NCBI GenBank assembly: GCA_014435945.1
Contig: GCA_014435945.1_4088.1
DNA length: 64,000 bases
Origin: a phage
Reading direction: 5' to 3' (one strand)
The translations under genes and the position numbers were made by a program. Positions 3,565 to 25,856 of the stretch are shown here, in pieces. The notes under the pieces are model-generated. The model worked only from the letters and a program-made list of their open reading frames with translations, searched no databases and was not told the DNA's origin. The first letter of the stretch is position 1; each line of letters begins with the position of its first letter.

Positions 3565-3565
3565 A

Positions 3566-4466: not shown

Positions 4467-4699
4467 TATTGAGTTTTGTAGTCGCATTATTGTTTATGTT
4501 CTACCCTACACTAGTAGCAGTAGCCACTAAACGAAAGCTGGTGGATATCACTACGGTATTCTTGCTAAACGTGGCACTCGTTCTAGTGTCTATTATCATT
4601 CCCGTGAACTTTACGGTTATTGACATGGCATCTGTATTACTATTCGTCTTCAGTTATCTTATGCTTATTGAAGAAAAACCTGTTGACAAACGTTTGTAG
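4457..4699 (+). CDS. small membrane protein (2 predicted TM)
   Basis: Hydrophobic composition. Confidence 0.45.
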   Translation: MYLVLSFVVALLFMFYPTLVAVATKRKLVDITTVFLLNVALVLVSIIIPVNFTVIDMASVLLFVFSYLMLIEEKPVDKRL

Positions 4700-5538: not shown

Positions 5539-5922
5539 ATGATAAACGATGTAATGCTTTATGTATTAATTACTCCGATTCTTATTAACTCAGTAATAAC
5601 TATTTCAATGGCATTATTTGGTATAGTAGCAATTGTTTATGCTGTTAGTACTGGAAAGTATACTTTAATTAGTAAGGTTGATTCATGGTTCGCATCTGAT
5701 AGTGTACCATATTCAGCTAGTATGATTACGATTGGTATTCTAATCGTTGCATTTACACTGCACTGTATTGGTTTTATTAATACAAGTATTTTTTCAGTTT
5801 TTATTGGTCTATCATTATATCCATCACTTTGGTACTTGATTTATGTAACCGATGTTTGGTATAATAACTACAAGCAGTACAAAGTGAAGAAATCCATTTT
5901 ATCCAAAGGAAACAAATCATGA
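5539..5922 (+). CDS. multi-pass membrane protein
   Basis: Hydrophobic composition. Confidence 0.5.
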   Translation: MINDVMLYVLITPILINSVITISMALFGIVAIVYAVSTGKYTLISKVDSWFASDSVPYSASMITIGILIVAFTLHCIGFINTSIFSVFIGLSLYPSLWYLIYVTDVWYNNYKQYKVKKSILSKGNKS

Positions 5923-8229: not shown

Positions 8230-8466
8230 ATGGAAACTATAATCATCATATGTGCGTTGTTTGCATTTTTGGTAATGTGGTCACCAACATTCATTGCATA
8301 TAAAATGAAAAATAAAAATGCAGAAGCAATTATGTACGTAAACTTATGTTGCATACTAACTTATGGAATACTTTTATTCTTTACTGAATTTACATTAATC
8401 CCAGTAGTAGTTTGTTCATCAATGTTTATTTGGTTGTTTCTGCTTTATGAATCTATTAAAAAATAA
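8230..8466 (+). CDS. small membrane protein
   Basis: Hydrophobic composition; SD GGAGG. Confidence 0.45.
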   Translation: METIIIICALFAFLVMWSPTFIAYKMKNKNAEAIMYVNLCCILTYGILLFFTEFTLIPVVVCSSMFIWLFLLYESIKK

Positions 8467-9661: not shown

Positions 9662-10045
9662 ATGGTTGATAAATGGAATAAGAAAGATCCATCGCATGAT
9701 GTGGATATTTCTGGAATTGATAATGCACATAAGCATAAGTATCTTGATTCACTAGGTCTACTAAAGCCTGACCAAAGTCTTGCACATGATCGTCCTTCAC
9801 GTGAAAAAGCTTTCAGTCTAGAATCACTAGGCCATGAATTGAATCGTGTATTTGAAGATCATCCAATTTATGTACGTGATATCATTGAGAAACTTAAAGT
9901 GACTCCTAAAGAGCACTTCAAGGCAACAGTACACGCAGCATTCCGTGCACTACATGAAGCACTAAAGAAAACTCATAACCTTCGCAAGATTCATGATGAC
10001 ATCGTGAACTCTATTGAAGGCGAAAAACATAAGTTTAAAAAATAA
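9662..10045 (+). CDS. hypothetical protein; shares an SLGLL motif with 10893..12404
   Basis: ORF track; SD AAGGAG. Confidence 0.5.
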   Translation: MVDKWNKKDPSHDVDISGIDNAHKHKYLDSLGLLKPDQSLAHDRPSREKAFSLESLGHELNRVFEDHPIYVRDIIEKLKVTPKEHFKATVHAAFRALHEALKKTHNLRKIHDDIVNSIEGEKHKFKK

Positions 10046-10254: not shown

Positions 10255-10518
10255 ATGGCTGAAACATTATCACTATATGCGTTAGTACTGTTATTTGTCG
10301 GATTTCTTCCTGCACTCATTACAGCCATTCGTGTTGTTAAACATGAAGCTGCATTGATTGTATGTAGTATTGGGTCGAACATTCTATTGTATTTCTTTTT
10401 GACAAATACTATTGTACTGTTTGCTTTCTTTATCATGATTCTGTGGGTACTTGTAATTCTCGGATTCTTCATTTGGTCATTGGTTGATCCTAAGAAAAAA
10501 ACAGGAGAAGTGAAATGA
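10255..10518 (+). CDS. small membrane protein
   Basis: Hydrophobic composition. Confidence 0.45.
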   Translation: MAETLSLYALVLLFVGFLPALITAIRVVKHEAALIVCSIGSNILLYFFLTNTIVLFAFFIMILWVLVILGFFIWSLVDPKKKTGEVK

Positions 10519-10892: not shown

Positions 10893-12404
10893 ATGAAATC
10901 TATGGAGAGAAATCAAATGCCAGGTCAATTTACTGATAAAAATGGCGGGAACATGGCAGGTCACTCTGATAAATGGAGTGAACGCAATCGTCGTCAAAAT
11001 AGCTACCAAGCAGGACAGGGGTCACGTGGATCACGTAATCAAGGGACAGGTTTAGCTGGTAAGGCAAACGCAGAAGCAGGTGAAGTTAAGAGTACTGAGA
11101 ACATGACTGAGCTAGAAAAGCTACGTTATGTTAACTCATTAGGTCTTCTTAACGCAACACAGAAACAACGCCTTGCTGATATGGAACGTGCTGAGAAAGA
11201 ACAAGCAGTTCCTAAAGAAGAACCAAAACCAGAAGCTCCTAAAGCAGCTAACCCTGTTAAAGAGTTATCTGATAACTTAGGTAAGATCTTTGCTAACAAA
11301 CCACAGTTGATTCAGGGTATTGTCAAAGCACTACAGGCAGTTCCTAAAGAAGAACTCAAAGGTAAAGCACAAGCTGTACTTGATGCAATGAAAGGTAATA
11401 AGAGCACTGAACCCACTGAAGTATTCAGTACTATCATGCGTGCACTTGAAGGTACACACAAAGAAGATTCGAAAGAACCTGAACAGGGTGAAGCAAGTCT
11501 TGATGGTATTCTTAAAACTTTTGATAGTATTGGTAAAGCAGACCGTGCTAATGCCCAGCAAATCAAGAATGTACTGGCTAAACTTGAAAACCGTTTAGAA
11601 GGTAAAGACGATAAGGTTAAGCTCGTATCAGATGCAGTTAACAGTGCACTTAAATCTTATGTACAAGGTGAGAAAAGTCGCTTCGTAACAGCTATGGATG
11701 CTGCATTCAACACTATGAAAAAGTATGAAGCAGAACATGGTGAGAAGGTAACACCAGATGGTTATCTAAAGCGTGCAGATGAAGAAGGTGCAGTTGAACA
11801 GAAAGATGTAGAACCTGAACAAGAAGATCTACCTGATACCGTTGATATGGATGGATATATTCATCGTCCTGAGATGGAAGAGTTTGGGTCAGATAAAGAA
11901 GGTTTTGAACATGCAATGGCAGTATATAAAGCATTAGTTAAAAATCCAGATTATGCTAACCGTTTTGTTGACGAGTTTGATAGTGCATGGAATAACTACA
12001 AAGACAAAGGTTATGACTTCCCTGCTGAAGCTGCATTCTTTGAACTTGGTAAACTATTAGCTAAACATGGAATTGACGTTGGTTCATCTGATTCCGAAGG
12101 TATGGAAGAAGAACATCTTGAAATGACCGATAAATCAATTCATGAACTTCAAAAGCTAATGATGTGGATATCCGAGATTGGTAAAAAAGCAGGTGCTGAT
12201 AGTAAAAGTATCAACAAAAACATTAGTTGGATTAAAGATAATGTTGGTAACAATGCTCGTAAACTACAAAAGGCGTGGGCTGATTTAGTAAATGGTGCAG
12301 ATGATGTTGACATTGAATCACCAGAAGCATATGAGTATGCACTAACTACACTTGATAACTCATTCAAAGAGTACGACCGTGGTGTTGGAAAAGATAAAAA
12401 ATAA
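10893..12404 (+). CDS. large charged, low-complexity protein (503 aa; start could be ATG 10917)
   Basis: ORF track; K/E-rich. Confidence 0.55.
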   Translation: MKSMERNQMPGQFTDKNGGNMAGHSDKWSERNRRQNSYQAGQGSRGSRNQGTGLAGKANAEAGEVKSTENMTELEKLRYVNSLGLLNATQKQRLADMERAEKEQAVPKEEPKPEAPKAANPVKELSDNLGKIFANKPQLIQGIVKALQAVPKEELKGKAQAVLDAMKGNKSTEPTEVFSTIMRALEGTHKEDSKEPEQGEASLDGILKTFDSIGKADRANAQQIKNVLAKLENRLEGKDDKVKLVSDAVNSALKSYVQGEKSRFVTAMDAAFNTMKKYEAEHGEKVTPDGYLKRADEEGAVEQKDVEPEQEDLPDTVDMDGYIHRPEMEEFGSDKEGFEHAMAVYKALVKNPDYANRFVDEFDSAWNNYKDKGYDFPAEAAFFELGKLLAKHGIDVGSSDSEGMEEEHLEMTDKSIHELQKLMMWISEIGKKAGADSKSINKNISWIKDNVGNNARKLQKAWADLVNGADDVDIESPEAYEYALTTLDNSFKEYDRGVGKDKK

Positions 12405-12475: not shown

Positions 12476-12727
12476 ATGTTTAAATATGTTTTATTTTCAC
12501 TTGTATTGTTTGCTGATATAGTTTATAGTACTGAATACCAGTGCTCCATTGCTAGACAGGAGTTTAGAAACGGTGAGTTCTATACCAAGTCTTACACTAG
12601 AGGATTGGTACATGACAATAATAAAACTATAGGGTTCAATGCATTTGATAACAAAGATCGATATACGTCTGGAATACTATCTGAACGTAAGTCGGATATA
12701 CTAGGTATCGAGCGTGAATTCCGGTGA
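12476..12727 (+). CDS. secreted protein fragment (signal peptide); possibly one gene with 12714..13055
   Basis: N-terminus MFKYVLFSLVLFADIVYS. Confidence 0.4.
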   Translation: MFKYVLFSLVLFADIVYSTEYQCSIARQEFRNGEFYTKSYTRGLVHDNNKTIGFNAFDNKDRYTSGILSERKSDILGIEREFR

Positions 12728-13055
12728 CACGGTTGCAATGTGTAATGATATTGAGAGTACTAAGAAAGTATATACTAATGGTGAAACTACCTTTAGATTC
12801 CACAATCTTACTACTAATGAAAGTTTATACTTCTACAACTGTAAAGAGTTCATTAAACCTGTGGATAACTCATGTGATATGCCGGAGCCAAAAGCTGCTG
12901 TATGTGAGGAACCACAATCCAAAGCTGACAAATCGGATAAAAAAGAAAACAAAAAGAAAGCTAAAGATGATAAAGATAAAAAGTCCCCTAAGCCAAATCC
13001 ATTTGAAAAGCCAAAGAATGAAAAGCCAAAACCAGACATGACATGTAAAATATAA
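12714..13055 (+). CDS. hypothetical protein with Lys-rich tail; overlaps 12476..12727 in another frame
   Basis: ORF track; overlap suggests frameshift or split gene. Confidence 0.35.
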   Translation: MNSGDTVAMCNDIESTKKVYTNGETTFRFHNLTTNESLYFYNCKEFIKPVDNSCDMPEPKAAVCEEPQSKADKSDKKENKKKAKDDKDKKSPKPNPFEKPKNEKPKPDMTCKI

Positions 13056-13060
13056 AAGAA

Positions 13061-13096
13061 AAGGGTTGACTTCGGTCGGCCCTTTTTGCTATAATC
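13061..13096 (+). promoter_or_regulatory. PeSL-like terminator-promoter cassette
   Basis: gggttgacttcggtcggccctttttgctataat. Confidence 0.7.
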
Positions 13097-13121
13097 ATTT
13101 CATCAACTACTGGAGGCAAAC

Positions 13122-13535
13122 ATGTTAAAAGTTATTTTCCGTTCTATCAGTTCATTACTTCTTATGATTAGTTCAGTTTGTTATGCAAATGAAGTATCTG
13201 ATTTATTTGAGAAGAATTACCCAACTGCACAAGAGATGGGTGTTTTAAAATGCAAGCTAACTTCGTACAACATCATCGGCAGTAAACTTGTACTGGAACA
13301 TGAACGTAGTACACCAATCCCTCTAGTAGAAGAAGGCAGTACCTTTAGCTTCAAGTACGGGGTGAACGTAACATCTGGTGTAATGAACAATGTTGATGCA
13401 GAGACTGGTTCAACATGGAGTACTAGCGGTAAAGATGTGTTTCATCGTATGCGTGAAAATGGTAAACTGAAGTACGTATATGAAAGTTCATTCATGAAAC
13501 GTGTATTCATTATAAAAAATTGTGTACCAGCATAA
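13122..13535 (+). CDS. secreted protein (signal peptide)
   Basis: N-terminus MLKVIFRSISSLLLMISSVCYA. Confidence 0.5.
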   Translation: MLKVIFRSISSLLLMISSVCYANEVSDLFEKNYPTAQEMGVLKCKLTSYNIIGSKLVLEHERSTPIPLVEEGSTFSFKYGVNVTSGVMNNVDAETGSTWSTSGKDVFHRMRENGKLKYVYESSFMKRVFIIKNCVPA

Positions 13536-13546
13536 GGAACAACATC

Positions 13547-13822
13547 ATGCGTTCATTTGAAAACTTAATCGGTAAACTTCGCTTACAAGAAATTGAAGCT
13601 GATGTGAAGGAATTATCTGAAACTAAGAGTTACATTCATTTAGATGAACTGTTTATTAAGTACGGTGAGATTGGTTTTAAGTCATTATTTGTTTTTGTCA
13701 TGAAGGTGCATAGTTTAAAGTACTTTGATTTGAGTTCAAAAGACGGACAACCAAATCTGTATTACATGTATTATCTTAAGAACATAGACGAAGCTAATAC
13801 ATTATTCTTAGAATATATGTAG
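13547..13822 (+). CDS. hypothetical protein
   Basis: Internal ATG with AAGGA SD. Confidence 0.45.
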   Translation: MRSFENLIGKLRLQEIEADVKELSETKSYIHLDELFIKYGEIGFKSLFVFVMKVHSLKYFDLSSKDGQPNLYYMYYLKNIDEANTLFLEYM

Positions 13823-13831
13823 GGGGTAAAA

Positions 13832-14170
13832 ATGGAACATCATTTTGAATTAATTAATAAGGTATCATTTTATATAGTATCGTTAGTTTGGGTGTATTAC
13901 ATGTTTGGTTACATTATTGCATTCTTCCGATACACGACCTTGTATCAACGCATATACTACGATGCACCAATTTCATTTTTGATGTTCTGTGCATGTACGT
14001 GGGGGATAATTGAAGCACTGGTATGTGGATATAGTACGGACGAATTAAATCTCGTATCGGTGTTGACATTACTAACAATTGCTACTATGATAGCTACAGT
14101 TCCAATATTTTTGCTCTTTAAACTGCTTCATCGCATCGATGAGTGGCGTAATAAAATCCCTGAAAAGTAA
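13832..14170 (+). CDS. small multi-pass membrane protein, paralog family M
   Basis: 3-4 hydrophobic segments; basic C-terminus RNKIPEK. Confidence 0.5.
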   Translation: MEHHFELINKVSFYIVSLVWVYYMFGYIIAFFRYTTLYQRIYYDAPISFLMFCACTWGIIEALVCGYSTDELNLVSVLTLLTIATMIATVPIFLLFKLLHRIDEWRNKIPEK

Positions 14171-14179
14171 GGATTGATA

Positions 14180-14521
14180 ATGATTTTTTACACTAATGCG
14201 TTTGCTTATGCCGTTGCATCAATCTACATTGTGTACTTCTTATTTGGTGGAGTACTGTACTTCTTTAAGTACAAAACATTGTTTAACCGAATGTATCCAA
14301 ATCATCCAATTGTAGTAGTACTTTTGATTATTTCTGTTGCTCACATCATTGTAGAAACAATAATGGGTATTAGTGCAGTACATTACAGTCTAGGTACTAT
14401 TGTGATTATTACTATGATCATCGCATACATTTTAGTAATGGGTTCTGGTTTATTTGGGAATGTAGCAATGAAATTGTATAATCGAATTAAAACCTTACGT
14501 GATAATCTACCGGAGCGTTGA
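14180..14521 (+). CDS. small multi-pass membrane protein, family M
   Basis: C-terminus LRDNLPER; shared FKYKTLFNRMYP-type motif. Confidence 0.5.
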   Translation: MIFYTNAFAYAVASIYIVYFLFGGVLYFFKYKTLFNRMYPNHPIVVVLLIISVAHIIVETIMGISAVHYSLGTIVIITMIIAYILVMGSGLFGNVAMKLYNRIKTLRDNLPER

Positions 14522-14522
14522 G

Positions 14523-14867
14523 ATGTATAATTTAAATTTAATATCATATATCATAACAACACTGTTTACTTTCTATGCCTTTGTTGGTATACTCCTACTG
14601 TACTTTAAATTTTATAAACTCTTTGACCGTTTTTATCCGTCATTAGAACATGAATTCTTATTGGTGATGTACATCTGTCTAACGTTTATGTCTACATTTT
14701 TCACTGCATCTGATGGTATCATTGGTATTAAAGCTGAAGAACCAAATGGGAGTACGCTTGTTGCCTTTATTCTGGTAGGATTTTTCAGTACTTATATTAC
14801 CTTTATTTCAGGATGTACCGTGATTGATTATCTTGTGAAATTACGAGATAAAATGCCAAATCGATAG
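14523..14867 (+). CDS. small multi-pass membrane protein, family M
   Basis: C-terminus LRDKMPNR; ATG after upstream stop. Confidence 0.5.
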   Translation: MYNLNLISYIITTLFTFYAFVGILLLYFKFYKLFDRFYPSLEHEFLLVMYICLTFMSTFFTASDGIIGIKAEEPNGSTLVAFILVGFFSTYITFISGCTVIDYLVKLRDKMPNR

Positions 14868-14876
14868 GGGATTGCT

Positions 14877-15134
14877 ATGTTTGCATTGCGTAATAAAAAT
14901 ACAAAAGAGATTCTATGTATCTCAACAGTATGGGATTGTGCAGGAAGTGAAATGATTCTCGAAGAAGGTTCAGGTGATTGTGTTTATGTTGTTCAGGATC
15001 GTCGCGAACTGGAATCATTACTTGACGAATTTAATGCTGGTGGAAATCCTAAAAGTACTCAATTCCCTGAGATCAGGAATCCAGCACCACCAGGCTCTTA
15101 TGAAATTCTACAACTGTGGGAGATGGATAAGTAA
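14877..15134 (+). CDS. hypothetical protein
   Basis: ORF track. Confidence 0.45.
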   Translation: MFALRNKNTKEILCISTVWDCAGSEMILEEGSGDCVYVVQDRRELESLLDEFNAGGNPKSTQFPEIRNPAPPGSYEILQLWEMDK

Positions 15135-15514
15135 TGCGTCAAATGCACAAAGTAACCGAGCTAAACAAGCGTCTGATTAAACAATCAATGTTTGAGGATA
15201 AAGAGTCTTACTATAACTTCAAACGTGCTGTAGAGGCTGCTATCCACATTCAGAAGCTTAAAGAACGTGGTTGTATTATTCTCGAAAATGGTTCTGACGT
15301 TGTGACGAATGACTTCAGTGTAGCGTTTGATGTTTCACCTGATGGTTCGCTATCAATGCCACGCTTAGGGACTGGTAACATGACTGTGTGGGTAGGTTTC
15401 ACTATGGGAAATGTACCAGGTACTGTGTATGTAGATGATGCTGAGTTGAAAGAAAGCTTCAAAAACTTATCGTATCTTGAACCACAACACGCACATGAAA
15501 TGAATTTATTTTGA
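15134..15514 (+). CDS. hypothetical protein
   Basis: ORF track; overlapping start/stop. Confidence 0.5.
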   Translation: MRQMHKVTELNKRLIKQSMFEDKESYYNFKRAVEAAIHIQKLKERGCIILENGSDVVTNDFSVAFDVSPDGSLSMPRLGTGNMTVWVGFTMGNVPGTVYVDDAELKESFKNLSYLEPQHAHEMNLF

Positions 15515-15524
15515 GTTGACAAAC

Positions 15525-15575
15525 TCATTCAGTACTGTATAATGTTTATCAAGGGGATGAACTTCTCATCCCCAC
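15525..15575 (+). promoter_or_regulatory. sigma70-like promoter (TTGACA..AGTACTG-TATAAT) followed by leader hairpin GGGGATGA/TCATCCCC
   Basis: Seen directly. Confidence 0.55.
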
Positions 15576-15590
15576 AATCGAGGAATTGTC

Positions 15591-16145
15591 ATGATTACTT
15601 TTAAGAAAACTGCTAACCACATCCATGAGATCTACATTAACGGTCACAAAGCTGGCCTTCTTCGTTTACTCGCCCATCATCCGAATATTACCGTATCTGA
15701 TAATGAACCTAAAGATTGGCGTGTATTTTTCTTTGGAAAGTACAGTGATTTTCAAGTATCAAACCTGAAGAACATTCGTTCAGTATGCACGTTAACTGAA
15801 ATTAAAGAAAAGTTAACCAAAGCATTGAAAACTAATCCAGATAGTGTTCTTCCACCTGATAACTTTGTAGAGAAAGGATATGCCTTAGCTCATTTCAAAG
15901 ATGGTACTATTCAATCTATCAGTACTGAATATGAATATCAATGGACTGAGTACTTCACTTATGGATCGCGTAATACATTGATGGCTTCACGTAGTAAATT
16001 GGAAGAAGTACTGACTCGTATGAATGAACGCGAGCGTCAATTATATGACAAACCAGAAATGTGGAGTTCAACTTACATTGACCGTATTGACTATGTTATT
16101 ATGACTCCAATCTTTGACACTGCTTACTATGATTCTTTGAAATAA
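15591..16145 (+). CDS. hypothetical protein (184 aa)
   Basis: ORF track; promoter and SD GAGG upstream. Confidence 0.55.
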   Translation: MITFKKTANHIHEIYINGHKAGLLRLLAHHPNITVSDNEPKDWRVFFFGKYSDFQVSNLKNIRSVCTLTEIKEKLTKALKTNPDSVLPPDNFVEKGYALAHFKDGTIQSISTEYEYQWTEYFTYGSRNTLMASRSKLEEVLTRMNERERQLYDKPEMWSSTYIDRIDYVIMTPIFDTAYYDSLK

Positions 16146-16156
16146 GGATAACTTAT

Positions 16157-16333
16157 ATGAAACTACGTACTCGTAATCGACTGATGGATGCACTGTACCA
16201 TGAACAGCTTTCACTGAATGAAGTGAAGCGACAGTTAATGTACACATATCTGTTACCCGCTCGCATTGCAAAACAACGTGCTAAAGAATTGCTGAAAGAA
16301 GCAATCGAGTACTGGGAATCTGATTCGTACTAA
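16157..16333 (+). CDS. putative 58-aa basic helical protein (MKLRTRNRLMDALYHEQ...)
   Basis: Read manually; SD AAGGA; below ORF-track cutoff. Confidence 0.35.
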   Translation: MKLRTRNRLMDALYHEQLSLNEVKRQLMYTYLLPARIAKQRAKELLKEAIEYWESDSY

Positions 16334-16361
16334 TTGTCACGTTAATTAAATGAGGCGATAA

Positions 16362-16613
16362 ATGAAAATTTTATTAGTTCTAATACTACTAATTGTTTTA
16401 CCATTTACGTTAGTATCCCCTGAACTTGCATGGAATGTGTTTGTGTACTTACTATGTACTATTGTAGTAAATGGTATCTTGTTCTTAGTTCTATTCATAA
16501 ATGGAATAGGACACGGTGGAGGATGGACCAGTACTGCTGATATTGTACATAAAACCACTATGTCTTTATTTGTAGTGTGGAATTTATTCTGGACTTGGTT
16601 TGTGTTCTTCTAA
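16362..16613 (+). CDS. small membrane protein
   Basis: Hydrophobic composition. Confidence 0.45.
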   Translation: MKILLVLILLIVLPFTLVSPELAWNVFVYLLCTIVVNGILFLVLFINGIGHGGGWTSTADIVHKTTMSLFVVWNLFWTWFVFF

Positions 16614-16622
16614 TTAAAAAAT

Positions 16623-16994
16623 ATGAATATAGATTTGAAAGGTGCAACACGAACTGTCATACTCATTGGGGAATATGCTATCAAGATTCCAACCTTTAAA
16701 AGTTGGAAGCTATTCTTAACAGGGATGATAGCTAACCTCAATGAACGTTCGTGGATGCAGTACTCCAAGCGTAGTGATACTGGTATCTGTCCTACTTTGT
16801 GGTCATCATGTACTGGACTAGTAACTGTACAGAAACGTTGTAAGCCAGTACAACATAGGGGTTTATTTTGGGTGGAGTTGTGTGCTTTAGCATTGAATTC
16901 AGAGTTAAGTACTGACTTCTTCTATTCAGATGCGAAGCCAGAAAACTTTGGGTATCTGTGTGGTAAGTTGGTTAAACTTGATTATGGAGATTAA
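16623..16994 (+). CDS. hypothetical protein
   Basis: ORF track. Confidence 0.45.
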   Translation: MNIDLKGATRTVILIGEYAIKIPTFKSWKLFLTGMIANLNERSWMQYSKRSDTGICPTLWSSCTGLVTVQKRCKPVQHRGLFWVELCALALNSELSTDFFYSDAKPENFGYLCGKLVKLDYGD

Positions 16995-16995
16995 T

Positions 16996-17265
16996 ATGTA
17001 CGCATTGTATAATAAAGAAAAGAAACGATTTGCTAAGGTTGAAATTTCGATTGATACATTTGACATGTTGGAGTACTGTATTGTAACGGATTTATATGCT
17101 AACTTGTATTACGTTCTTGATGACGTATCAGTACTGCAACGATTGCTTGAGAATTCCAAAAGCCAATGCCAGGGCATCTATGATGGTTCATCTTATGAAA
17201 CACCTGAGTGTTCCTACGGCTATCTGGACGGGTATGAGATTGTGAAGTTGGGGATTGTTGAATAA
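16996..17265 (+). CDS. hypothetical protein
   Basis: Internal ATG with GGAGA SD. Confidence 0.45.
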   Translation: MYALYNKEKKRFAKVEISIDTFDMLEYCIVTDLYANLYYVLDDVSVLQRLLENSKSQCQGIYDGSSYETPECSYGYLDGYEIVKLGIVE

Positions 17266-17356
17266 ATGGATTAAACAATGAAGAAGTGTATCATTCTTTG
17301 TTCTAATCACCATCGCATGGTACATTCTGGTAGACTATGTTTGATTGAAAGAAAAA

Positions 17357-17393
17357 AAGGGTTGACTTCAGTCGGCCCTTTTTGCTATAATCA
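17357..17393 (+). promoter_or_regulatory. PeSL-like terminator-promoter cassette
   Basis: gggttgacttcagtcggccctttttgctataat. Confidence 0.7.
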
Positions 17394-17419
17394 TTTCATC
17401 GAAACGAGAGGATGAATAC

Positions 17420-17935
17420 ATGACACGCATTAACTTAGTACACGTTAAAGAACTTGCTGACCAACATCTGATGGCTGAATATCGTGAACTCCCACGTGTG
17501 TTTGGTGCTGTACAAAAACATGTTCAAGCACGTAAGCGAGTCCGTGATTTCAAAATTAACAGTACTTACCTGTTAGGTTCAGGTCATGTAACATTCTTCT
17601 ACAACAAGTTATTGTACTTACAGAAGCGTCATATTGATATTGTTAACGAATGTTTGCGTCGTGGTATGAAGATTCAAAACACTGAAGTAAACGACATTAG
17701 CGGATTCCCTGCTGAGTTTTGTAATGACTACGTACCATCGGAGTCAGAGATTAAAATGTCTCGTGAGCGTTTGATTGAGAAGCTACAGATGAAGCCTACG
17801 TGGTATAAATTTACTGACGTTGAACGCCCACAGTATGTTAAAGATATGCAGGACGTAAGTAGTAATATAGAATCTAGTACTGATATGTTCGACGAAATTG
17901 AAGAACAAATCAAAGATGAAATGAATAATTATTAA
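17420..17935 (+). CDS. denV: endonuclease V / pyrimidine-dimer DNA glycosylase (DenV family), with about 35-aa acidic C-terminal extension
   Basis: Near-identical to T4 DenV over the N-terminal 60 aa ([42 protein letters not shown]), with weaker similarity through ..PTWYK; catalytic Thr2 and Glu23 conserved. Confidence 0.9.
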
Positions 17936-17940
17936 AGGAA

Positions 17941-17976
17941 AGGGTTGACTTCGGTCAGCCCTTTTTGCTATAATTA
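17941..17976 (+). promoter_or_regulatory. PeSL-like terminator-promoter cassette
   Basis: agggttgacttcggtcagccctttttgctataat. Confidence 0.7.
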
Positions 17977-18000
17977 TTTTATCGAAACGAGAGGTAATAC

Positions 18001-18213
18001 ATGAAACTATCTTTTATACGTTTAGCAGAATTCTTCGGTACTGATATTATTACTTTACAACAAATTGCAGACAATACTTCATTAAGTACACAAGAAGTAC
18101 TTGACTTAGATGTAATTCAGTGCGATAATACTTCCATTGATTTCAAAGAAGGTCTTGTCGAAAAAGATAAGATTCAAGCTAAGATTAATGGTGCTGGACG
18201 GGTTCAGTACTGA
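18001..18213 (+). CDS. hypothetical protein
   Basis: ORF track; downstream of PeSL-like promoter. Confidence 0.45.
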   Translation: MKLSFIRLAEFFGTDIITLQQIADNTSLSTQEVLDLDVIQCDNTSIDFKEGLVEKDKIQAKINGAGRVQY

Positions 18214-18229
18214 AAAGGAGTATTGAGTA

Positions 18230-19378
18230 ATGTTTGAAAAGTACTATTTAAATGAAGATGGTGAGAAAGTTTATATTATTGAAGAATTATGTACTAAATT
18301 TGAGTACATGAAAATAGAAAATGTTCCTGTAAAAAATAAAAAAACTATCGTTAGAATTGATGAAATTAAACTAAAAGCCATTGAAAAAGAAGATACTATT
18401 TTTGGCTTACAGATATCAAACAGTAATCAATTTTTTGGACTAGAAAAGAATAAAGTTCTGTTTAGATGTGGAACATGCAGCACTTTATGTACAAGTTCAC
18501 TGAAAAGTTATCTTATCTCTGGTGGATGTCAGATATGTGGTAAGAAGAAAAGAAAAGAGTACCAAAACACTATCAAAATATCTGAATCTGATGCATTAAA
18601 AGAAATACAAAAAGAGTGTAAACGCGAATCTATTACATTTATCAAATTTGAAGGTGAATTTACTACAAAATTCAAATCTAAATTTTGGTACAAATGTAAA
18701 AACAACCATACTCGTTTATGTGAGAACATTTATGATTTTCTTAATGGTCATAATTGTGTTGAATGTCGTGATTACAGCTCGGCAAAAAAGATTCGTTTGA
18801 ATATTCTAGTAGTCAAATATGAAATAGATAAAAGAAACGCAGTTTGTAATAATACCTTTATTGGATTTGTGGGAGGTGTTTATGAAACATCAAAAACAAA
18901 ATTACATTTACAGTGTAATGATTGTAATAACCCATTTTATCCATCATATCATAACTATATATCATCTGAGTCTTCATGTCCTACCTGTTCATCAGGTGAG
19001 AGTAAGAATTTAGTTGATATTGATGGTATGTTAGAAGATGATACCATAAAAGAGAAACGCTTCATTGATTGTAAGTTCAAAAAGCCATTACCTTTTGATC
19101 GATTTATTGAAAGTAAACGAATCCTTCTGGAATATGATGGAGTACAACATTTTCAATCAATCAAATTATGGGGCGGCAAAAGTGCTTTTGAACAAAGAAA
19201 GATAAAAGACGCAATAAAAACTGAGTACGCCATCAACAACGGTTACAACTTCATTAGGATTGCATACTATGAAGACCACGTTGCAGTACTGAAATCTTTT
19301 CTAAAACTTATCGAAGATAATCCAGAAAAGCAAATCGTACAGATTTATGGTGAAGTACAAATCTTAGACAAGAAATAA
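18230..19378 (+). CDS. Cys-rich multi-Zn-ribbon protein with C-terminal Vsr/DUF559-like (PD-(D/E)xK) endonuclease motif; candidate homing-type endonuclease
   Basis: Several CxxC pairs; C-terminal EYDGxQH..D..K..A...GY.FIRI pattern. Confidence 0.5.
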   Translation: MFEKYYLNEDGEKVYIIEELCTKFEYMKIENVPVKNKKTIVRIDEIKLKAIEKEDTIFGLQISNSNQFFGLEKNKVLFRCGTCSTLCTSSLKSYLISGGCQICGKKKRKEYQNTIKISESDALKEIQKECKRESITFIKFEGEFTTKFKSKFWYKCKNNHTRLCENIYDFLNGHNCVECRDYSSAKKIRLNILVVKYEIDKRNAVCNNTFIGFVGGVYETSKTKLHLQCNDCNNPFYPSYHNYISSESSCPTCSSGESKNLVDIDGMLEDDTIKEKRFIDCKFKKPLPFDRFIESKRILLEYDGVQHFQSIKLWGGKSAFEQRKIKDAIKTEYAINNGYNFIRIAYYEDHVAVLKSFLKLIEDNPEKQIVQIYGEVQILDKK

Positions 19379-19387
19379 CAATACAAA

Positions 19388-19423
19388 AGGGTTGACTTCG
19401 GTCAGCCCTTTTTGCTATAATTA
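19388..19423 (+). promoter_or_regulatory. PeSL-like terminator-promoter cassette
   Basis: gggttgacttcggtcagccctttttgctataat. Confidence 0.7.
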
Positions 19424-19449
19424 TTTCATCAACTGATGAGGATAACGAA

Positions 19450-20220
19450 ATGACCAGAGAAGCACGTAGCATTCAAATCCAGAAAAACTTCAACTCCATG
19501 ATGGTTGCTCTTGAGTGTTTGCTCGATGATAGCAGTACTGTAAAAAGTATGGTTGTCAGTGGTGCACCTGGTGTTGGTAAGACTTACACCCTGTCACAAC
19601 GCCTCCAGAAAGCTCATGACGCAGCAGAATGGAACGTAGCTACTATCAGTGGTAAGATGACTACTCTTGCTCTGTATGAAGTTCTGTACAAGAATCGTCA
19701 CAGCACTAACGTATTAGTACTGGATGATATGGACAGCATCTTTGATTCAGAAGACGGTATGAACCTGCTCAAAGCAGTACTGGACAGCGGTAAACGTACT
19801 GTGTCTTACATGACTAGCTCTAAGTACTTAACTACCAACGGTATCCCTAACAGCTTTGATTTTAACGGTCGTATCGTATTCATTACTAACAAAGATTTAG
19901 CACTGAATGCTAAAGCTAAAACCAAAATGTCTGCTCACTATGCTGCTCTTATGTCTCGCTCTGTGTATGTTGACTTACAGATCCAGACTAAAAGCGATAT
20001 CATGATTCACATTGAAAACGTAATGAACAAGACCAACATCCTGTCAACTAAAGGTGTTAATAGTAATGGTAGCAAAGCAATCCTGAATTGGATGCTGAAA
20101 CATGAAGATGCACTTCGTGCCCCTTCACTGCGTATGCCTCTGTTGATTTCAGCAGTATACAACAACAACCCGTATGATTGGGAAGAGCAGTGCGAAAATT
20201 TGTTCCTTGAGAAAATTTAA
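19450..20220 (+). CDS. P-loop NTPase (Walker A GAPGVGKT, Walker B VLVLDD)
   Basis: Motifs read directly; codon usage looks less AT-biased than neighbours. Confidence 0.65.
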   Translation: MTREARSIQIQKNFNSMMVALECLLDDSSTVKSMVVSGAPGVGKTYTLSQRLQKAHDAAEWNVATISGKMTTLALYEVLYKNRHSTNVLVLDDMDSIFDSEDGMNLLKAVLDSGKRTVSYMTSSKYLTTNGIPNSFDFNGRIVFITNKDLALNAKAKTKMSAHYAALMSRSVYVDLQIQTKSDIMIHIENVMNKTNILSTKGVNSNGSKAILNWMLKHEDALRAPSLRMPLLISAVYNNNPYDWEEQCENLFLEKI

Positions 20221-20287
20221 TTACATGTATTGACAGTACTACCATAGTGTAGTACTATAACTTAATATTCACCACCGGAGATACGAT

Positions 20288-20626
20288 ATGCTTGAGTTTT
20301 TTAATTCAGATACAATGCTTAGTATTACTTTGATTTATCTGTTTGGTTTTTTCTTTTATCATGCACTAGTTGTAGTACTATGGTATTTTAAAAAGAAAAT
20401 CGTTTTCAAACTGTATCCTGATGGAAACATTTCACTACTTCTTTTCACTATTATCCAAGGTATGTTTGCAATTGTTGGTCTTATCGCACACTTAATTTAT
20501 TGTGCTAATCCACAGTTGAACTCAATATCACAATATATTGTATTCCTTGGATTACTAATTTGGGTGCTGATATACTTGTTTAATCTCATCATCAATGGTA
20601 GAGCAAAAATTCGTGGGGACTTCTAA
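20288..20626 (+). CDS. small multi-pass membrane protein, family M
   Basis: Hydrophobic composition; tandem paralog run. Confidence 0.5.
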   Translation: MLEFFNSDTMLSITLIYLFGFFFYHALVVVLWYFKKKIVFKLYPDGNISLLLFTIIQGMFAIVGLIAHLIYCANPQLNSISQYIVFLGLLIWVLIYLFNLIINGRAKIRGDF

Positions 20627-20973
20627 TGTTTGAATCTTATCTTGAGTTTTTAAAGAGTAGTTCTGTTGCACATTCAATTGCAGGGATTATTCTAACAGGT
20701 TATGTAACATTTTGGGTAGTTATGTTTCTAGGATGGTATTTTAAACGACAATTCTATAAGCGTAATGGTGAAGATTTTATGAATTCTTTCATTAATCAAT
20801 CGTTGTTTGCATCAACATTGATAGCATCTATTGTAGCAACACTCACTGGAAAGGTACTGCCAGCATTCTCCGCAGTTTACGGTACATTGGGTATGATATG
20901 TGTAGTTTTTTACTTGATCATTAAACTTTGTTGTGTTATGATTGACCTTCGAAACAAGATACCGGAGGAATGA
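20626..20973 (+). CDS. small multi-pass membrane protein, family M
   Basis: C-terminus LRNKIPEE; overlapping start/stop. Confidence 0.5.
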   Translation: MFESYLEFLKSSSVAHSIAGIILTGYVTFWVVMFLGWYFKRQFYKRNGEDFMNSFINQSLFASTLIASIVATLTGKVLPAFSAVYGTLGMICVVFYLIIKLCCVMIDLRNKIPEE

Positions 20974-21308
20974 TGGAATATTTTTTACACTTACTGCCGT
21001 GGTATATGAAAGTTAGTACTATGTACTATATTCTTAGTGCTGGATTCTACTTTCTGATGTGGTTCTTCAAACGACCAATTTCAGTATTCATCTCTGATAA
21101 CATGCTGCAATTAAAATTACACGCATGGTTTGGTATGGCGATGATTATGCCAATTATTCACTACTCAATGATTAGTAGAGGGTTCCGTTCCAATGGTGAA
21201 CCAATTGTATTAGTATTCTATTGGGGTTCAACTATTGCATATGTAAGTTTGTTGTTGTTCCCAGTCGTTCATAAATTACGTGCTAAAGTTCCTGATGCGA
21301 GGTACTAA
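20970..21308 (+). CDS. small multi-pass membrane protein, family M
   Basis: C-terminus LRAKVPDARY. Confidence 0.5.
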   Translation: MMEYFLHLLPWYMKVSTMYYILSAGFYFLMWFFKRPISVFISDNMLQLKLHAWFGMAMIMPIIHYSMISRGFRSNGEPIVLVFYWGSTIAYVSLLLFPVVHKLRAKVPDARY

Positions 21309-21622
21309 TGGATATCGTAACATTGATTTACACGCTTTATTCATTCTATTTTATTATGTGTTGGGTTGGATTTTTATTTGTATTGAAGATGTTTGATTAT
21401 GTTGAAAAACAGATAAAAGAATTTTGTATTCCTTTTATTGGGTCAACCATAATTAGTATTACTTGTTTGTATTATTTGGTATGTGATCCACCTGTTAATA
21501 CAGCAATGATTGACTTCATGTTATTACCAACAACTGTTATTTTTTTATGTAGTCTGATGCCACCGATTAGTCGTGGGCTAACCGAATTTAGACGCAATCA
21601 AAAGCGTAAACGAGGGATGTGA
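21308..21622 (+). CDS. small multi-pass membrane protein, family M
   Basis: Hydrophobic; basic C-terminus. Confidence 0.5.
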   Translation: MDIVTLIYTLYSFYFIMCWVGFLFVLKMFDYVEKQIKEFCIPFIGSTIISITCLYYLVCDPPVNTAMIDFMLLPTTVIFLCSLMPPISRGLTEFRRNQKRKRGM

Positions 21623-21990
21623 TGGAAATTACACTTATTATATTAACTGCTATGTTGTTTATTAGTACAATTGTTATTATTGGCAAGTTCTTCTGTGTAT
21701 CCTTCTTGGAAACCGTATACGATGAAATTGCTGATGATTATGAATTACATGCGGGATTTTTTACTACGTATTGGATTAGTTTATTACTACTTATCACTGT
21801 ATGGATTTTACATATATTCAAATGGGGTATGGTAGATGGTGATCCAGTACTGGCAATTATCTGTGTAGTGTTTGGTCTACTCGGTGGTGCTGTCCATAAT
21901 CTGATGGTAATTTGGCAAACCGTACAATATGTATTAGTTCCACATTTTCAGAGAATGCACCAAAGCATCAAATACCGCAAACGAGGATAA
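21619..21990 (+). CDS. small multi-pass membrane protein, family M
   Basis: Hydrophobic; basic C-terminus. Confidence 0.5.
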   Translation: MMEITLIILTAMLFISTIVIIGKFFCVSFLETVYDEIADDYELHAGFFTTYWISLLLLITVWILHIFKWGMVDGDPVLAIICVVFGLLGGAVHNLMVIWQTVQYVLVPHFQRMHQSIKYRKRG

Positions 21991-21991
21991 C

Positions 21992-22354
21992 ATGAATAAT
22001 ATTGAATTATCTTTTATTGGTCAATTAATGGTAATGGCGTATACATTTATCTTCTCACTGAATGCATTCGTGTGCATTGGGAAGTACTTCCATAAGCGAC
22101 CATTATCAAATATATATGATGTAATACAAAGGAGATATAGCCCAGCATATACTGTGTTGAGTACAGCATTCAATTTTGGTTTTATTCTAATGCTGGTTGC
22201 ATTATTAACATCGAGTTTAAATTTTATAACATTTGGTATTATGGTATGTTCACTAACACTGAGTGTGGTTATTCTCTGTGCATCCGTTGAGTTGATGGCG
22301 TGGATGTATTATAAGATTTCCGAAATCCATGACCGTTTAGGTAAGAGGAACTAA
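21992..22354 (+). CDS. small multi-pass membrane protein, family M
   Basis: Hydrophobic; basic C-terminus. Confidence 0.5.
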   Translation: MNNIELSFIGQLMVMAYTFIFSLNAFVCIGKYFHKRPLSNIYDVIQRRYSPAYTVLSTAFNFGFILMLVALLTSSLNFITFGIMVCSLTLSVVILCASVELMAWMYYKISEIHDRLGKRN

Positions 22355-22355
22355 A

Positions 22356-22727
22356 ATGAGTTATCGTGAAATATTTTCGATCATTACTATTATTGTTTTT
22401 AGTTTAGGTTCTTTGGTGTGGTTATTGTATTACTTCTGTGTAACCCCAGTATATAATATGCTAAATTCAGTACGCTCTGATGTTGGTATTGTTTCTTTTA
22501 TTATCTTCATGGCATATTATATGCTAAGTATCACAGGTTTGGTTTTGGTTGTTATCTTTGACCTTGGACCGAATCAAGATGGTATGGAGGTGTGGGAATT
22601 GATAACGATGTTTGCATGTATGATACCTGCATTTGGTGTATGTGCTGGTGTATTTTATGGGTTATGTAAAGGTGTGAACTACTTAAAAAATATCCACAAT
22701 ACTATTCGTAAAAAACGTATGTTATAA
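22356..22727 (+). CDS. small multi-pass membrane protein, family M
   Basis: Hydrophobic; basic C-terminus. Confidence 0.5.
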   Translation: MSYREIFSIITIIVFSLGSLVWLLYYFCVTPVYNMLNSVRSDVGIVSFIIFMAYYMLSITGLVLVVIFDLGPNQDGMEVWELITMFACMIPAFGVCAGVFYGLCKGVNYLKNIHNTIRKKRML

Positions 22728-22732
22728 TAAAA

Positions 22733-22757
22733 ATCCAGTACTATTATAGTACTGGAT
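22733..22757. terminator. bidirectional terminator hairpin (ATCCAGTACTA-tta-TAGTACTGGAT) between convergent genes
   Basis: Perfect 11-bp inverted repeat with A/T runs on both sides. Confidence 0.6.
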
Positions 22758-22762
22758 TAATT

Positions 22763-23887
22763 TTAATTATCTAAGCCACCAATTACACTGAACTGTGTGG
22801 TAACGTCTGAACTATTATCTATGTAAGTTCTTCTACCAACATAATATAGTTGTCCTTTTGCTTGTATAAAAGTTACTGTCCCTGTATTGAATGTTATAAT
22901 ATCATTGTATGTAATGTCAGGTGGTAGTGCTGCTGATAACGCAGTAACTTTACTTAATGCAGCACTAGTACTACCATTTATACCAGCAGCAATACTACCA
23001 GTACCATAGAACTTATTATCTTTACCAATGAATACGTTGGCTGATGCTTGTGTAGCTGATGTTATTGCCTTACCAATTTGGAATGCGGTTCCTATGGTGT
23101 ATGGTGTGCTCCTGGCTGCGTCTATGCTTTGTGTATATCCATCCCCTAGCTGACCATTAACTTTGTCACCACATGAGTATAGAGTACCATTGAGGCTGTA
23201 TATGATCCCACGGTTAGAGAAGCTAACAGCTTCTGCATTAGTCCATACTGGTGCGGTGTATGAGTTTACACGACTAGCGGTAGTTCCTAGACCTAGTATA
23301 CCATATGTGTTATCACCACATCCAAACCATTGCCCAGAACTGTTTTGATAGAACACTGAACGTTCTGTTGATTCCATGCGTACAGCATCCACAGCACCAC
23401 TTTTAACGAACGAAGTGGATGAGGATGTAGTACCAGTACCCAATGCACCATAAGTGTTTGTACCAATCGCATAGATTGATCCTAGTGGTGTCATAACACG
23501 TATGCAGTTATATCCCAATTGAACTTTACATTCAAATAGGTTGTCCCATATTTCAGGAACAGCAGAAAATAAATTTGTAATTTCGAACCATGATGTTGTC
23601 GAACCAGTTAATCCTATACTGCTTTTGTTTCCTAAAATGAAAACAGTTTTGTCCTTCTTAATTATCCATGATGATAGGAAACCTATCTCACAGCTATGAA
23701 CATTTGATTCTATTTGGGTAATATAATACTTAACTGTGTTATCACCCATGAATGCCGCAGCACCGGATGCAAAAAGGTTTCCAGTTTGTTTATTTAAAAT
23801 GTAGTTATTGTTTCCATATACTCTAACATCATAAGAACTTTCTTGTTTTTCGTTCCCATAATCAAATAACAATACGAAAGGTAACAT
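22763..23887 (-). CDS. RCC1-like repeat protein, array member 17 (divergent leader MLPFVLLFDYGN)
   Basis: Repeated G-x-N-x-x-GQLG-x-G-like motifs; paralog of array. Confidence 0.7.
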   Translation of the reverse strand: MLPFVLLFDYGNEKQESSYDVRVYGNNNYILNKQTGNLFASGAAAFMGDNTVKYYITQIESNVHSCEIGFLSSWIIKKDKTVFILGNKSSIGLTGSTTSWFEITNLFSAVPEIWDNLFECKVQLGYNCIRVMTPLGSIYAIGTNTYGALGTGTTSSSTSFVKSGAVDAVRMESTERSVFYQNSSGQWFGCGDNTYGILGLGTTASRVNSYTAPVWTNAEAVSFSNRGIIYSLNGTLYSCGDKVNGQLGDGYTQSIDAARSTPYTIGTAFQIGKAITSATQASANVFIGKDNKFYGTGSIAAGINGSTSAALSKVTALSAALPPDITYNDIITFNTGTVTFIQAKGQLYYVGRRTYIDNSSDVTTQFSVIGGLDN

Positions 23888-24622: not shown

Positions 24623-24641
24623 GCCAGTACATAGTACTGGC
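24623..24641. terminator. bidirectional terminator hairpin GCCAGTAC-ata-GTACTGGC
   Basis: Inverted repeat between convergent genes. Confidence 0.55.
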
Positions 24642-25784: not shown

Positions 25785-25856
25785 AATTCCCTCCTTTATT
25801 CATTATACTATATTTAATCAAAAAAGAAAAGCCAGTACTCAAGTACTGGCATTATT
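25785..25856 (-). promoter_or_regulatory. array intergenic cassette: hairpin terminator (25831-25850), T-run, TATAAT, AAGGAGG SD
   Basis: Near-identical sequence recurs between array genes. Confidence 0.65.

Follow-up and report, generated by a model that had tools for sequence, protein, structure and literature searches.

The window analysed here, a 64,000-nucleotide (nt) stretch of phage DNA (contig GCA_014435945.1_4088.1 of NCBI GenBank assembly GCA_014435945.1), carries ten genes for small membrane proteins, here called m1 to m10, in two clusters at 13832-14867 (cluster 1) and 20288-22727 (cluster 2). Judged by comparison of their profiles, these genes belong to a single superfamily, specific to phages and of ancient diversification, in which m1-m6 make up sub-family A and m7-m10 sub-family B. 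They represent a real and previously undescribed expansion of a family of three-pass membrane proteins, specific to the lineage of Rak2-like jumbo phages. We hold this descriptive account of the family as a whole with high confidence. A megablast search with positions 13000-23000 places the window in a 121Q/PBECO4-like jumbo coliphage of the genus Asteriusvirus, the top match being phage WPEC3 (97.7% identity, 80% query coverage). All ten genes are labelled 'hypothetical protein' in each deposited genome, and no description of the family was found in the literature on 121Q, PBECO4, RaK2, CBB, fEgEco12, Sharanji, UE-S1 and NrdC.10. The original prediction, made from the sequence letters, had called ten open reading frames (ORFs) of 104-123 amino acids (aa), three in cluster 1 and seven in cluster 2, and all of them were recovered. 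They are as follows, with E values from hidden Markov models (HMMs) of sub-family A or B and, for cluster 1, ratios of nonsynonymous to synonymous substitution (dN/dS):

13832..14170, + strand: m1, sub-family A, 112 aa, three-pass; phrog_19285; A-HMM E 1e-30; dN/dS 0.18-0.22
14180..14521, + strand: m2, sub-family A, 113 aa; alternative TTG start at 14174; A-HMM E 3e-23; dN/dS 0.07-0.15
14523..14867, + strand: m3, sub-family A, 114 aa; alternative GTG start at 14499; A-HMM E 1e-23; dN/dS 0.29-0.43
20288..20626, + strand: m4, sub-family A, 112 aa; phrog_19454; A-HMM E 9e-34
20626..20973, + strand: m5, sub-family A, 115 aa; phrog_19046; the hub joining A and B
20970..21308, + strand: m6, sub-family A, 111-112 aa; phrog_27396; the most conserved member
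21308..21622, + strand: m7, sub-family B, 104 aa; phrog_33258; B-HMM E 5e-32, A-HMM E 6e-4
21622..21990, + strand: m8, sub-family B, 122 aa; phrog_26405; alternative GTG start at 21619
21992..22354, + strand: m9, sub-family B, 120 aa; fast-diverging, 60-74% identity within the genus
22356..22727, + strand: m10, sub-family B, 123 aa; phrog_27618

Likeness among the ten proteins is hardly visible between single sequences: pairwise BLASTP comparisons were clearly significant only for m1-m2, m2-m3 and m4-m5, and in PHROGs the proteins fall in seven families, all of unknown function and with few, weak cross-matches. Membership in these families is clear for nine of the ten proteins (E 1e-46 to 1e-61, but 1e-3 for m3), and m9 matches phrog_26405 weakly (E 0.02). 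The insignificant BLASTP pairs and the seven separate families speak for the view, already raised with the original prediction as the finding that would overturn it, that the ORFs are unrelated small membrane proteins alike merely in hydrophobic composition.

BLASTP was replaced by profiles of ortholog groups, which were compared with HHalign. Orthologues were taken from eight Asteriusvirus genomes (A4, JNE01 and Turkey5 being strongly diverged in the arrays), and the Klebsiella phages RaK2 and KP13-7 were added. As a null we used column-reversed profiles, in which composition and helix-loop-helix layout are kept, together with five unrelated groups of small membrane proteins from the same genomes; its 146 comparisons had a mean score of 12.4 (standard deviation 2.5) and a maximum of 22.1. 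The links that join all ten proteins score 28.8-60 across 38-111 co-linear columns:

A side: cluster 1-m4 53.9; cluster 1-m5 52.7; m5-m6 60.0; m4-m5 36.6
between A and B: m5-m7 37.7 (94 columns); m5-m9 30.2 (90 columns); m6-m8 28.8 (104 columns)
B side: m8-m9 40.5; m8-m10 44.1

Every link exceeds the null maximum, and all ten proteins are therefore tied into one graph, in agreement with the earlier claim of a paralogous family in two clusters. When the sub-families were compared as wholes, A (76 sequences) against B (35 sequences) gave a probability of 96%, E 4e-9 and a score of 50.4 over 102 co-linear columns, against 12-16 for reversed profiles and 7-15 for unrelated membrane groups. Circular permutation of the B alignment was also tried as a null and discarded as invalid for local alignment, half-length matches surviving it at scores of 28-51.

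The two sub-families also find each other among the 240 ORFs of at least 50 aa in the window. An HMM built from A alone ranked the six A members first, followed by m10, m9, m7 and m8 (E 2e-5 to 3e-3), while one short out-of-frame ORF reached E 0.003 and everything else E 0.16 or higher; an HMM built from B alone ranked its own four members first and then m3, m4, m1, m2 and m5, missing m6 (E 4). Since the other ORFs of the window do not score, the window holds exactly ten members. On the other hand, an exhaustive HMM search with the A profile at E<=0.001 did not retrieve B-type proteins, a result that favours a likeness of composition only; what supports the link between A and B is therefore the profile-profile comparison, together with the reciprocal ranking of window ORFs, the shared motifs and the synteny, and the link is strong at the profile-profile but not at the profile-sequence level. 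Against composition as the sole cause of the likeness stand the controls, which stay at or below 22.1 (at or below 16 for A against B), and the reciprocal HMMs, each of which fetches the other sub-family ahead of nearly all 240 ORFs (except m6 with the B model). They are joined by one Phe that is invariant over 35 sequences, by an R/H column aligned near the C-terminus, and by the tail of RaK2 ORF310, EFHNKLPD, which is a hybrid of the A and B types. We therefore reject composition alone as a most improbable explanation.

PHROGs thus keeps apart what appears here as one superfamily: phrog_19285, 19454, 19046, 27396, 33258, 26405 and 27618, to which the related phrog_16874 ('membrane protein') can be added.

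Start codons follow the annotators of related genomes, who pick ATG at 14180, 14523 and 21622 over the upstream TTG or GTG of the mechanical ORF list. A Shine-Dalgarno sequence lies 6-9 nt 5' of the ATG in every one of the ten genes (TAAGGA in the case of the ATG at 14180 of m2). The genes had been proposed to be translationally coupled by overlapping starts and stops. Their tight packing is consistent with coupling, but overlaps of stop and start, 1-4 nt long, are limited to four junctions (m4/m5, m5/m6, m6/m7 and m7/m8, in the forms TAATG, ATGA and TGATG), and the remaining junctions within the clusters are gaps of 1-9 nt. All ten genes have dN/dS values of 0.07-0.59 (pairwise Nei-Gojobori estimates against 121Q, ph0011, UE-S1 and JNE01), and therefore all ten are kept by purifying selection. 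Several genes end in two or three codons that double as the Shine-Dalgarno sequence of the next gene (20955-20973, 21600-21622, 21970-21990, 22335-22354): CCG GAG GAA (P-E-E) in m5, AAA CGA GG(G/A) (K-R-G) in m7 and m8, and AAG AGG AAC (K-R-N) in m9. Conservation of the C-terminal motif is therefore partly constrained at the DNA level; the R/H-x-K-(I/L) core sits 5' of the overlapping Shine-Dalgarno sequence, and the motif is also present in m1, m3 and m10, where there is no such overlap.

A single alignment of all ten proteins with their database relatives is co-linear and has the invariant Phe and, near the C-terminus, the R/H column. Each of the ten window proteins combines a length of about 105-125 aa with three hydrophobic helices, the invariant Phe and an R or H after the third transmembrane helix (TM3). 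The Phe is part of a motif rich in aromatic residues where TM1 reaches the cytoplasm, and the R or H opens the motif R/H-x-(K/N/x)-(I/L) of the basic helix that comes after TM3. In A-type proteins helix 1 ends in (L/I)-(W/L/Y/F)-(Y/F)-F-(K/R)-(K/R/Y/F), often followed by x-(I/L/V)-(F/Y)-x-(K/R)-(L/I/M/F)-Y-P, and the C-terminus reads (L/W)-R-x-(K/N)-(I/L/M/V)-P-(E/D/N). The corresponding B-type motif is (I/L)-G-K-(F/Y)-F-(C/H), with Y-Y-F-C in m10; the tail is (I/M)-H-x-x-(I/L)-(K/R/G)-x-(K/R) with a basic end in m8-m10 and E-F-R-R-N-Q-K-R-K-R in m7. An N-proximal motif had been assigned to several members, which holds clearly for m1-m4 and merely in part for m5 and m6. The C-terminal motif was said to occur often: L-R-x-K-(I/L/M/V)-P is present in five of the ten proteins and a variant of it in m4, but the tails of m7-m10 differ.

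Three or four hydrophobic segments had been proposed, and the AlphaFold models support three, not four. The AlphaFold2 model of m5 has a short N-terminal helix and three long helices (predicted local distance difference test, pLDDT, 77.5); that of m10 (pLDDT 82.6, predicted template modelling score 0.62) has helices at 3-26, 30-37, 42-68 and 79-122. Acidic charge marks loop 2 and, in m8, also loop 1, which is basic in A-type proteins; the N-terminal tail is neutral or acidic and the C-terminal tail strongly basic, with a net charge of 0 to +6 in the last 22 residues (positive in nine of the ten proteins). This charge pattern, read with the positive-inside rule, gives an N-out/C-in topology. 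The products are predicted to lie in the host inner membrane with three helices and a periplasmic N-terminus, loop 1 and an amphipathic basic C-terminal helix being cytoplasmic, so that every conserved motif is predicted to face the cytoplasm. Orthologues agree best in helix 1 and loop 1 (60-64% identity) and least in the hairpin of helix 2, loop 2 and helix 3 (46-52%).

Orthologues of all ten genes are present in every relative examined. The family is narrowly distributed: a word-indexed search of 5.8 billion proteins gave only 17 clusters with the A profile and 10 with the B profile, and the exhaustive search of 1.84 billion cluster representatives with the A-HMM gave 28 proteins at E<=0.001, all of them A-type proteins of 89-120 aa except one repeat artefact and one uninspected 56-aa match. 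With m4, m5, m2, an m6-type and an m10-type protein as tblastn queries against 50,697 phage records, matches were obtained only in Asteriusvirus (36 records) and Alcyoneusvirus (9), apart from one weak partial match in Erwinia phage Hallingskeid. m6 is 36-38% identical to RaK2 ORF312 and m10 about 40% identical to RaK2 ORF315. HMM searches anchored on the ATPase gene upstream of cluster 2 revealed both A and B types in Salmonella phage Munch, Escherichia phage EJP2 and Serratia phage BF (Eneladusvirus), and on a metagenomic contig a 58%-identical ATPase is followed by three A-type genes. As far as these sequence searches reach, the family is phage-only and confined to enterobacterial Rak2-like jumbo phages. 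The annotation 'Phi92_gp233' in ph0011 had hinted at a homologue in phi92; no such homologue turned up with m4 as tblastn query at E<=10, and the hint was dismissed as a naming artefact.

The number of members per genome region varies:

Asteriusvirus: 10-11 in most genomes, 9 in SD-1_S14, 8 in A4; RaK2 and KP13-7: 8
distant relatives: EJP2 6, BF at least 4, Munch at least 2

Lineage-specific duplications affect the m4, m5 and m7 types (m4 is doubled in 121Q, ph0011 and UE-S1), and cluster 1 of A4 consists of one gene, not three. Paralogue types are mostly one-to-one between Asteriusvirus and Alcyoneusvirus. The RaK2 array has the order m5, m5', m4, m6, m7, m8, m10 plus one extra type and is without the m9 type; most paralogue types are therefore older than the split of the two genera. 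No further cluster was found elsewhere in the window or in the scanned 217 of 348.5 kilobases (kb) of 121Q, the remaining 38% of that genome being unscanned. JNE01 and Turkey5 have a duplicated m7-type gene and, between their cluster-1 paralogues, a soluble lysine-rich ORF of 117 aa (locus pieces 3473-3826 / 4179-4532). The m7 gene of 121Q is split (genes 228/229; locus piece 12985-13300) by a 1-nt insertion in a T-run; considered as a sign of dispensability, this was left unused, since it may be a pseudogene or a sequencing error.

The transcription of the arrays can be judged from the following features:

13066..13095, + strand: sigma-70-type promoter cassette TTGACTTCGGTCGGCCCTTTTTGCTATAAT, 11/12 consensus matches with extended -10; heads the cluster 1 unit
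19392..19421, + strand: sigma-70-type promoter cassette; heads the unit of ATPase and cluster 2
19450..20220, + strand: NrdC.10-like P-loop/AAA ATPase, 256 aa, with AAA-type Pfam matches; directly 5' of cluster 2
20230..20258, + strand: weaker site resembling a promoter, TTGACA-17-TACTAT; overlaps an AGTACT hairpin and lies between the ATPase gene and m4
22732..22758: bidirectional terminator-like hairpin with a 12-base-pair stem, AATCCAGTACTA...TAGTACTGGATT; closes cluster 2 and the convergent RCC1-like gene

The promoters at the head of the two units belong to a 30-nt cassette, TTGACTTCGGTCAGCCCTTTTTGCTATAAT, of which six near-identical copies lie on the + strand, at 6462, 10056, 13066, 17362 (denV), 17945 and 19392; a consensus -35 and an extended -10 are separated by the mini-hairpin GACTTCGGTC. 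The T4-type late motif TATAAATA is found twice in 64 kb (+ strand, 9622 and 10864), compared with about 7.5 expected per strand, and not near either array. Both sites lie 29-40 nt 5' of ORFs (9662-10045 and 10893-12404) that are virion structural proteins according to the WPEC3 annotation, a placement that suggests T4-like late transcription in the source phage. No transcriptome for these phage genera was found in the literature; from the strong sigma-70-type cassettes we infer that both arrays are transcribed early, by host RNA polymerase.

A second class of promoter, TTGACA-N9-10-(C/T)AGTACTGTATAAT, has the motif AGTACT directly before the -10 and occurs at 725, 4683, 15516, 49677, 55589, 60535, 60808 and 61121 on the + strand and at 52572 on the - strand. 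The palindrome AGTACT itself is found 266 times in 64 kb, where 22-23 occurrences are expected from mono- or dinucleotide composition; counts for the other palindromic hexamers with this base composition range from 11 to 32. Its density is 3.3 per kb in coding and 8.4 per kb in intergenic sequence, often in the form CAGTACTG or AAAAGTACTTGCAA (examples at 725, 4683, 15516, 20235-20256, 22737-22753, 24626-24638, 25834-25847 and 41492-41504). It may be the site of a regulatory protein or, possibly, a signature related to modification or restriction. Terminator-like hairpins with the common core (G/T)CCAGTAC-N3-7-GTACTGG(C/A) stand at 22732-22758, 24623-24641, 25834-25847, 37837-37854, 41492-41504 and 42741-42753; they recur over the region of the minus-strand RCC1-like array, the first two directly 3' of RCC1-like genes.

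Predicted timing and size bear on the idea that the proteins are holin-, antiholin- or pinholin-like and control lysis timing or depolarise the membrane; holin/antiholin-like control was among the candidate roles put forward with the original prediction. They do resemble class I holins of the lambda S105 type in having about 105-120 aa, three helices predicted as N-out/C-in and a basic, charged cytoplasmic C-terminal tail. Moreover, a hydrophobic segment is present at the N-terminus of the 121Q endolysin gp532 (PMC5259590), and inspection of ORFs around the endolysin and spanin genes revealed no obvious holin to go with it. Unlike holins, however, the proteins have no holin match in Pfam or NCBIfam, and their PHROG matches are all of unknown function. 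Sigma-70-type cassettes, not the late motif TATAAATA, are found at the arrays, which in 121Q occupy 106-116 kb; the endolysin and spanin genes of that phage are at 245-255 kb, roughly 130 kb away, and no family member was found in 121Q at 243-268 kb or 283-303 kb. A set of 8-11 copies per genome, as in Asteriusvirus and Alcyoneusvirus, would also be unexpected for a lysis timer. Given the early-type cassettes, the missing late motif and the distance to the lysis genes, a holin role is very unlikely. As an aside, the 121Q lysozyme gp532 (locus piece 11192-12118) is consistent with a signal-anchored endolysin and lies about 8 kb from the i-spanin and o-spanin genes gp511/512 (2339-3018).

The arrays are also where otherwise similar phages differ. 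Compared with JNE01, the flanking proteins orf184, orf58, mem83, orf123 and denV are 94-100% identical, m1-m10 only 26-53%. In a map of DNA identity, blocks of 92-95% are broken by 68%-identical or unalignable stretches, and these diverged stretches correspond to the cluster-1 unit and the unit of ATPase and cluster 2. Identity breakpoints at about 13045 (against JNE01), 17351, 17939, 19377-19387 (against A4, ph0011 and 121Q) and 20222 (where identity with A4 collapses) coincide with promoter cassettes. Mosaicism extends into the arrays, as m1 is 75% and m2 97% identical to the ph0011 counterparts. The ATPase occurs in two allele classes, with about 59% protein identity, among otherwise similar Asteriusvirus genomes, and these classes assort independently of the array: in A4 the ATPase DNA is 92% identical and the array diverged, in ph0011 the ATPase protein is 59% and the array DNA 83% identical. 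A search for co-variation of ATPase and array alleles, which could have pointed to physical interaction, was negative. From this pattern, whole modules appear to have been exchanged by recombination at the promoter cassettes. Modular shuffling mediated by PeSL promoter/stem-loop cassettes is known from T4-like phages (PMC2839356, PMC4122927), and the likeness lies in repeated composite early-promoter elements that contain a stem-loop, border variable modules and coincide with identity breakpoints. Rak2-like jumbo phages are not Straboviridae, however, and the likeness of TTGACTTCGGTCAGCCCTTTTTGCTATAAT to PeSLs is one of layout.

The segment between denV and the ATPase promoter (17940-19390) is hyper-variable as well. 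Here it contains a 70-aa ORF and a 382-aa DUF4379 zinc-finger protein; its counterparts are an 'endonuclease' in 121Q, an N6-adenine methyltransferase in ph0011 and an HNH endonuclease beside denV in WPEC3. Other small ORFs for membrane proteins or with an apparent signal peptide lie on the + strand at 4457-4699, 4758-5084, 5539-5922, 8230-8466, 10255-10518, 12476-12727, 13122-13535 and 16362-16613, and profile comparison related none of those tested to the family. The last of these, an 83-aa membrane protein, is 96-99% conserved, unlike the arrays.

What such proteins do can be explained in several ways. The reading that we favour, though tentatively, is that they are early accessory conflict factors at the inner membrane, which would either exclude competing phages by blocking their entry or development, or neutralise membrane-embedded host defences such as abortive-infection effectors. 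Both were among the candidate roles of the original prediction and are still plausible. The reading is favoured because of the predicted early expression and membrane location, a copy number that follows birth-and-death dynamics, the replacement of alleles between near-identical phages, and the restriction to a single clade; the presence of further small secreted or membrane ORFs in the surrounding early region also suits it. Each paralogue would have a specificity of its own, residing mainly in the variable TM2-loop2-TM3 hairpin, while the shared juxtamembrane motifs, aromatic-F-K/R after TM1 and R/H-x-(K/N)-(I/L) after TM3, may serve a common insertion, anchoring or partner-binding step; diversity would arise from gene duplication and loss and from the swapping of entire modules at the recurring promoter cassettes.

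A number of observations weigh against such a role in conflict. Searches of Pfam, NCBIfam, PADLOC, PDB sequences and folds for clues to function were empty or generic: Foldseek found nothing in PDB and in BFVD just the protein's own orthologue, and the single PADLOC match among the ten proteins is a weak one of m5 to the candidate membrane protein PDC-M39A (E 0.0024, 15.9 bits). T4 Imm, Sp and similar exclusion proteins are single genes, not ten-member arrays, and characterised anti-defence proteins are mostly soluble. The predicted early timing rests on the match of the cassettes to the consensus, and promoter-like sites in total are no more numerous than in shuffled sequence. Variation among orthologues is not concentrated in periplasm-exposed parts, unlike what a simple model of blocking from the outside would lead one to expect. 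Finally, the one-to-one paralogue types, the gene order kept between Asteriusvirus and RaK2 and the tight packing fit a multi-subunit assembly equally well or better.

This last possibility, a hetero-oligomeric inner-membrane assembly built by the phage as a channel, scaffold or anchor, possibly together with the NrdC.10-like ATPase, is the main rival and one that we regard as conceivable but improbable. Coupled translation would set the proportions of the subunits, and stops and starts overlap or abut all along the array; most types and their order are shared by Asteriusvirus and RaK2/KP13-7, purifying selection acts on all copies, and the cytoplasmic juxtamembrane motifs common to all members could bind one partner. 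Three-helix membrane-anchor subunits of the SdhC/FrdD type are among the closest known systems. The ATPase, about 38% identical to T-even NrdC.10 and matched in 1310 phage records, precedes the array in Asteriusvirus, RaK2 and KP13-7 (Alcyoneusvirus), Munch, Serratia phage BF (Eneladusvirus), EJP2 and the metagenomic contig, an order that speaks for a joint assembly. Yet no array was found beside the ATPase in the T-even phage T6 or in the PA5oct-like phage Ettore, and the independent recombination of ATPase and array in A4 and ph0011 likewise argues against a fixed complex. Nor would co-adapted subunits be expected to tolerate the swapping of single genes seen against ph0011. The copy number of 2-11, with independent duplications and losses, also speaks against an assembly, as do the missing m9 type and the extra type of RaK2 and the single cluster-1 gene of A4. 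Cluster 1, moreover, is a separate transcription unit about 5 kb from cluster 2.

Alternatively, the proteins might be general host-takeover factors that modulate housekeeping machines of the inner membrane (divisome, transporters, respiratory complexes, FtsH or Sec/YidC), which we consider rather unlikely. Predicted early expression and inner-membrane location would suit this role, and distinct paralogue types retained over a long time fit conserved host targets. Cluster 1 lies 3' of a protein kinase gene in 121Q and relatives, and this kinase, just before the cluster, is annotated there as an inhibitor of host transcription. Near-invariant E. coli targets, however, leave the 26-53% identity of the arrays beside flanks of 94-100% unexplained, and the turnover in copy number as well.

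Turning to the wider neighbourhood, the clusters were originally described as flanking denV, which they do, with denV at about 2.5 kb from each. The family was also placed directly upstream of the RCC1-like array; this description fails, because that array is on the opposite strand and convergent, and hence adjacent, not upstream. A functional tie between the two is unsupported beyond adjacency, RaK2 having the membrane array without an adjacent RCC1 array.

The conflict factors proposed here would have their closest functional counterparts in T4 Imm, T4 Sp, HK97 gp15 and P22 SieA, small inner-membrane proteins that are made early and cause superinfection exclusion. Like these, the family members are small phage proteins of the inner membrane, encoded by non-structural accessory genes in variable regions and made before progeny assembly, as far as prediction goes; they differ in having three helices instead of one or two and in forming a multi-gene array instead of a single gene. 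Pfam, NCBIfam, annotated PHROGs and PDB gave no match that would tie the family by homology to Imm, Sp or other known exclusion proteins. Because homology fails for holins and exclusion proteins alike, and genomic context for holins in addition, the family is a member of neither group. A preprint on early-infection vesicles of phiKZ was considered as a precedent and set aside as irrelevant, its paralogues being injected internal-head proteins.

A more specific and more doubtful version of the conflict role, which we consider unlikely, is that the arrays form a diversifying 'membrane immunity repertoire' of Rak2-like jumbo phages, with one inner-membrane target per paralogue and a shared cytoplasmic handle that recruits a phage partner. 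The variable TM2-TM3 hairpin would dock on a defence effector or on the entry conduit of a rival phage, and the F-K and R/H-x-K-I motifs would recruit a partner such as the NrdC.10-like ATPase. If true, this would be a modular, membrane-embedded form of counter-defence or exclusion without a described phage equivalent.

Jumbo phages of the Rak2/121Q group are under development for therapy against E. coli, Klebsiella and Salmonella, and most of their genes are unannotated. For these genomes, seven unannotated PHROG families are merged here into one superfamily with diagnostic motifs, a topology model and a phylogenetic range, and with a conserved genomic address: 3' of the NrdC.10-like ATPase gene and, for cluster 1, 3' of the protein kinase gene. 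It is unusual for a phage to expand a small membrane protein to as many as 8-11 conserved paralogues. Nowhere else do phages that are otherwise near-identical diverge as much as in the arrays, and this makes the arrays leading candidates for loci that determine host range, competition between phages or evasion of defences; such candidates could underlie differences in therapeutic performance between near-identical isolates.

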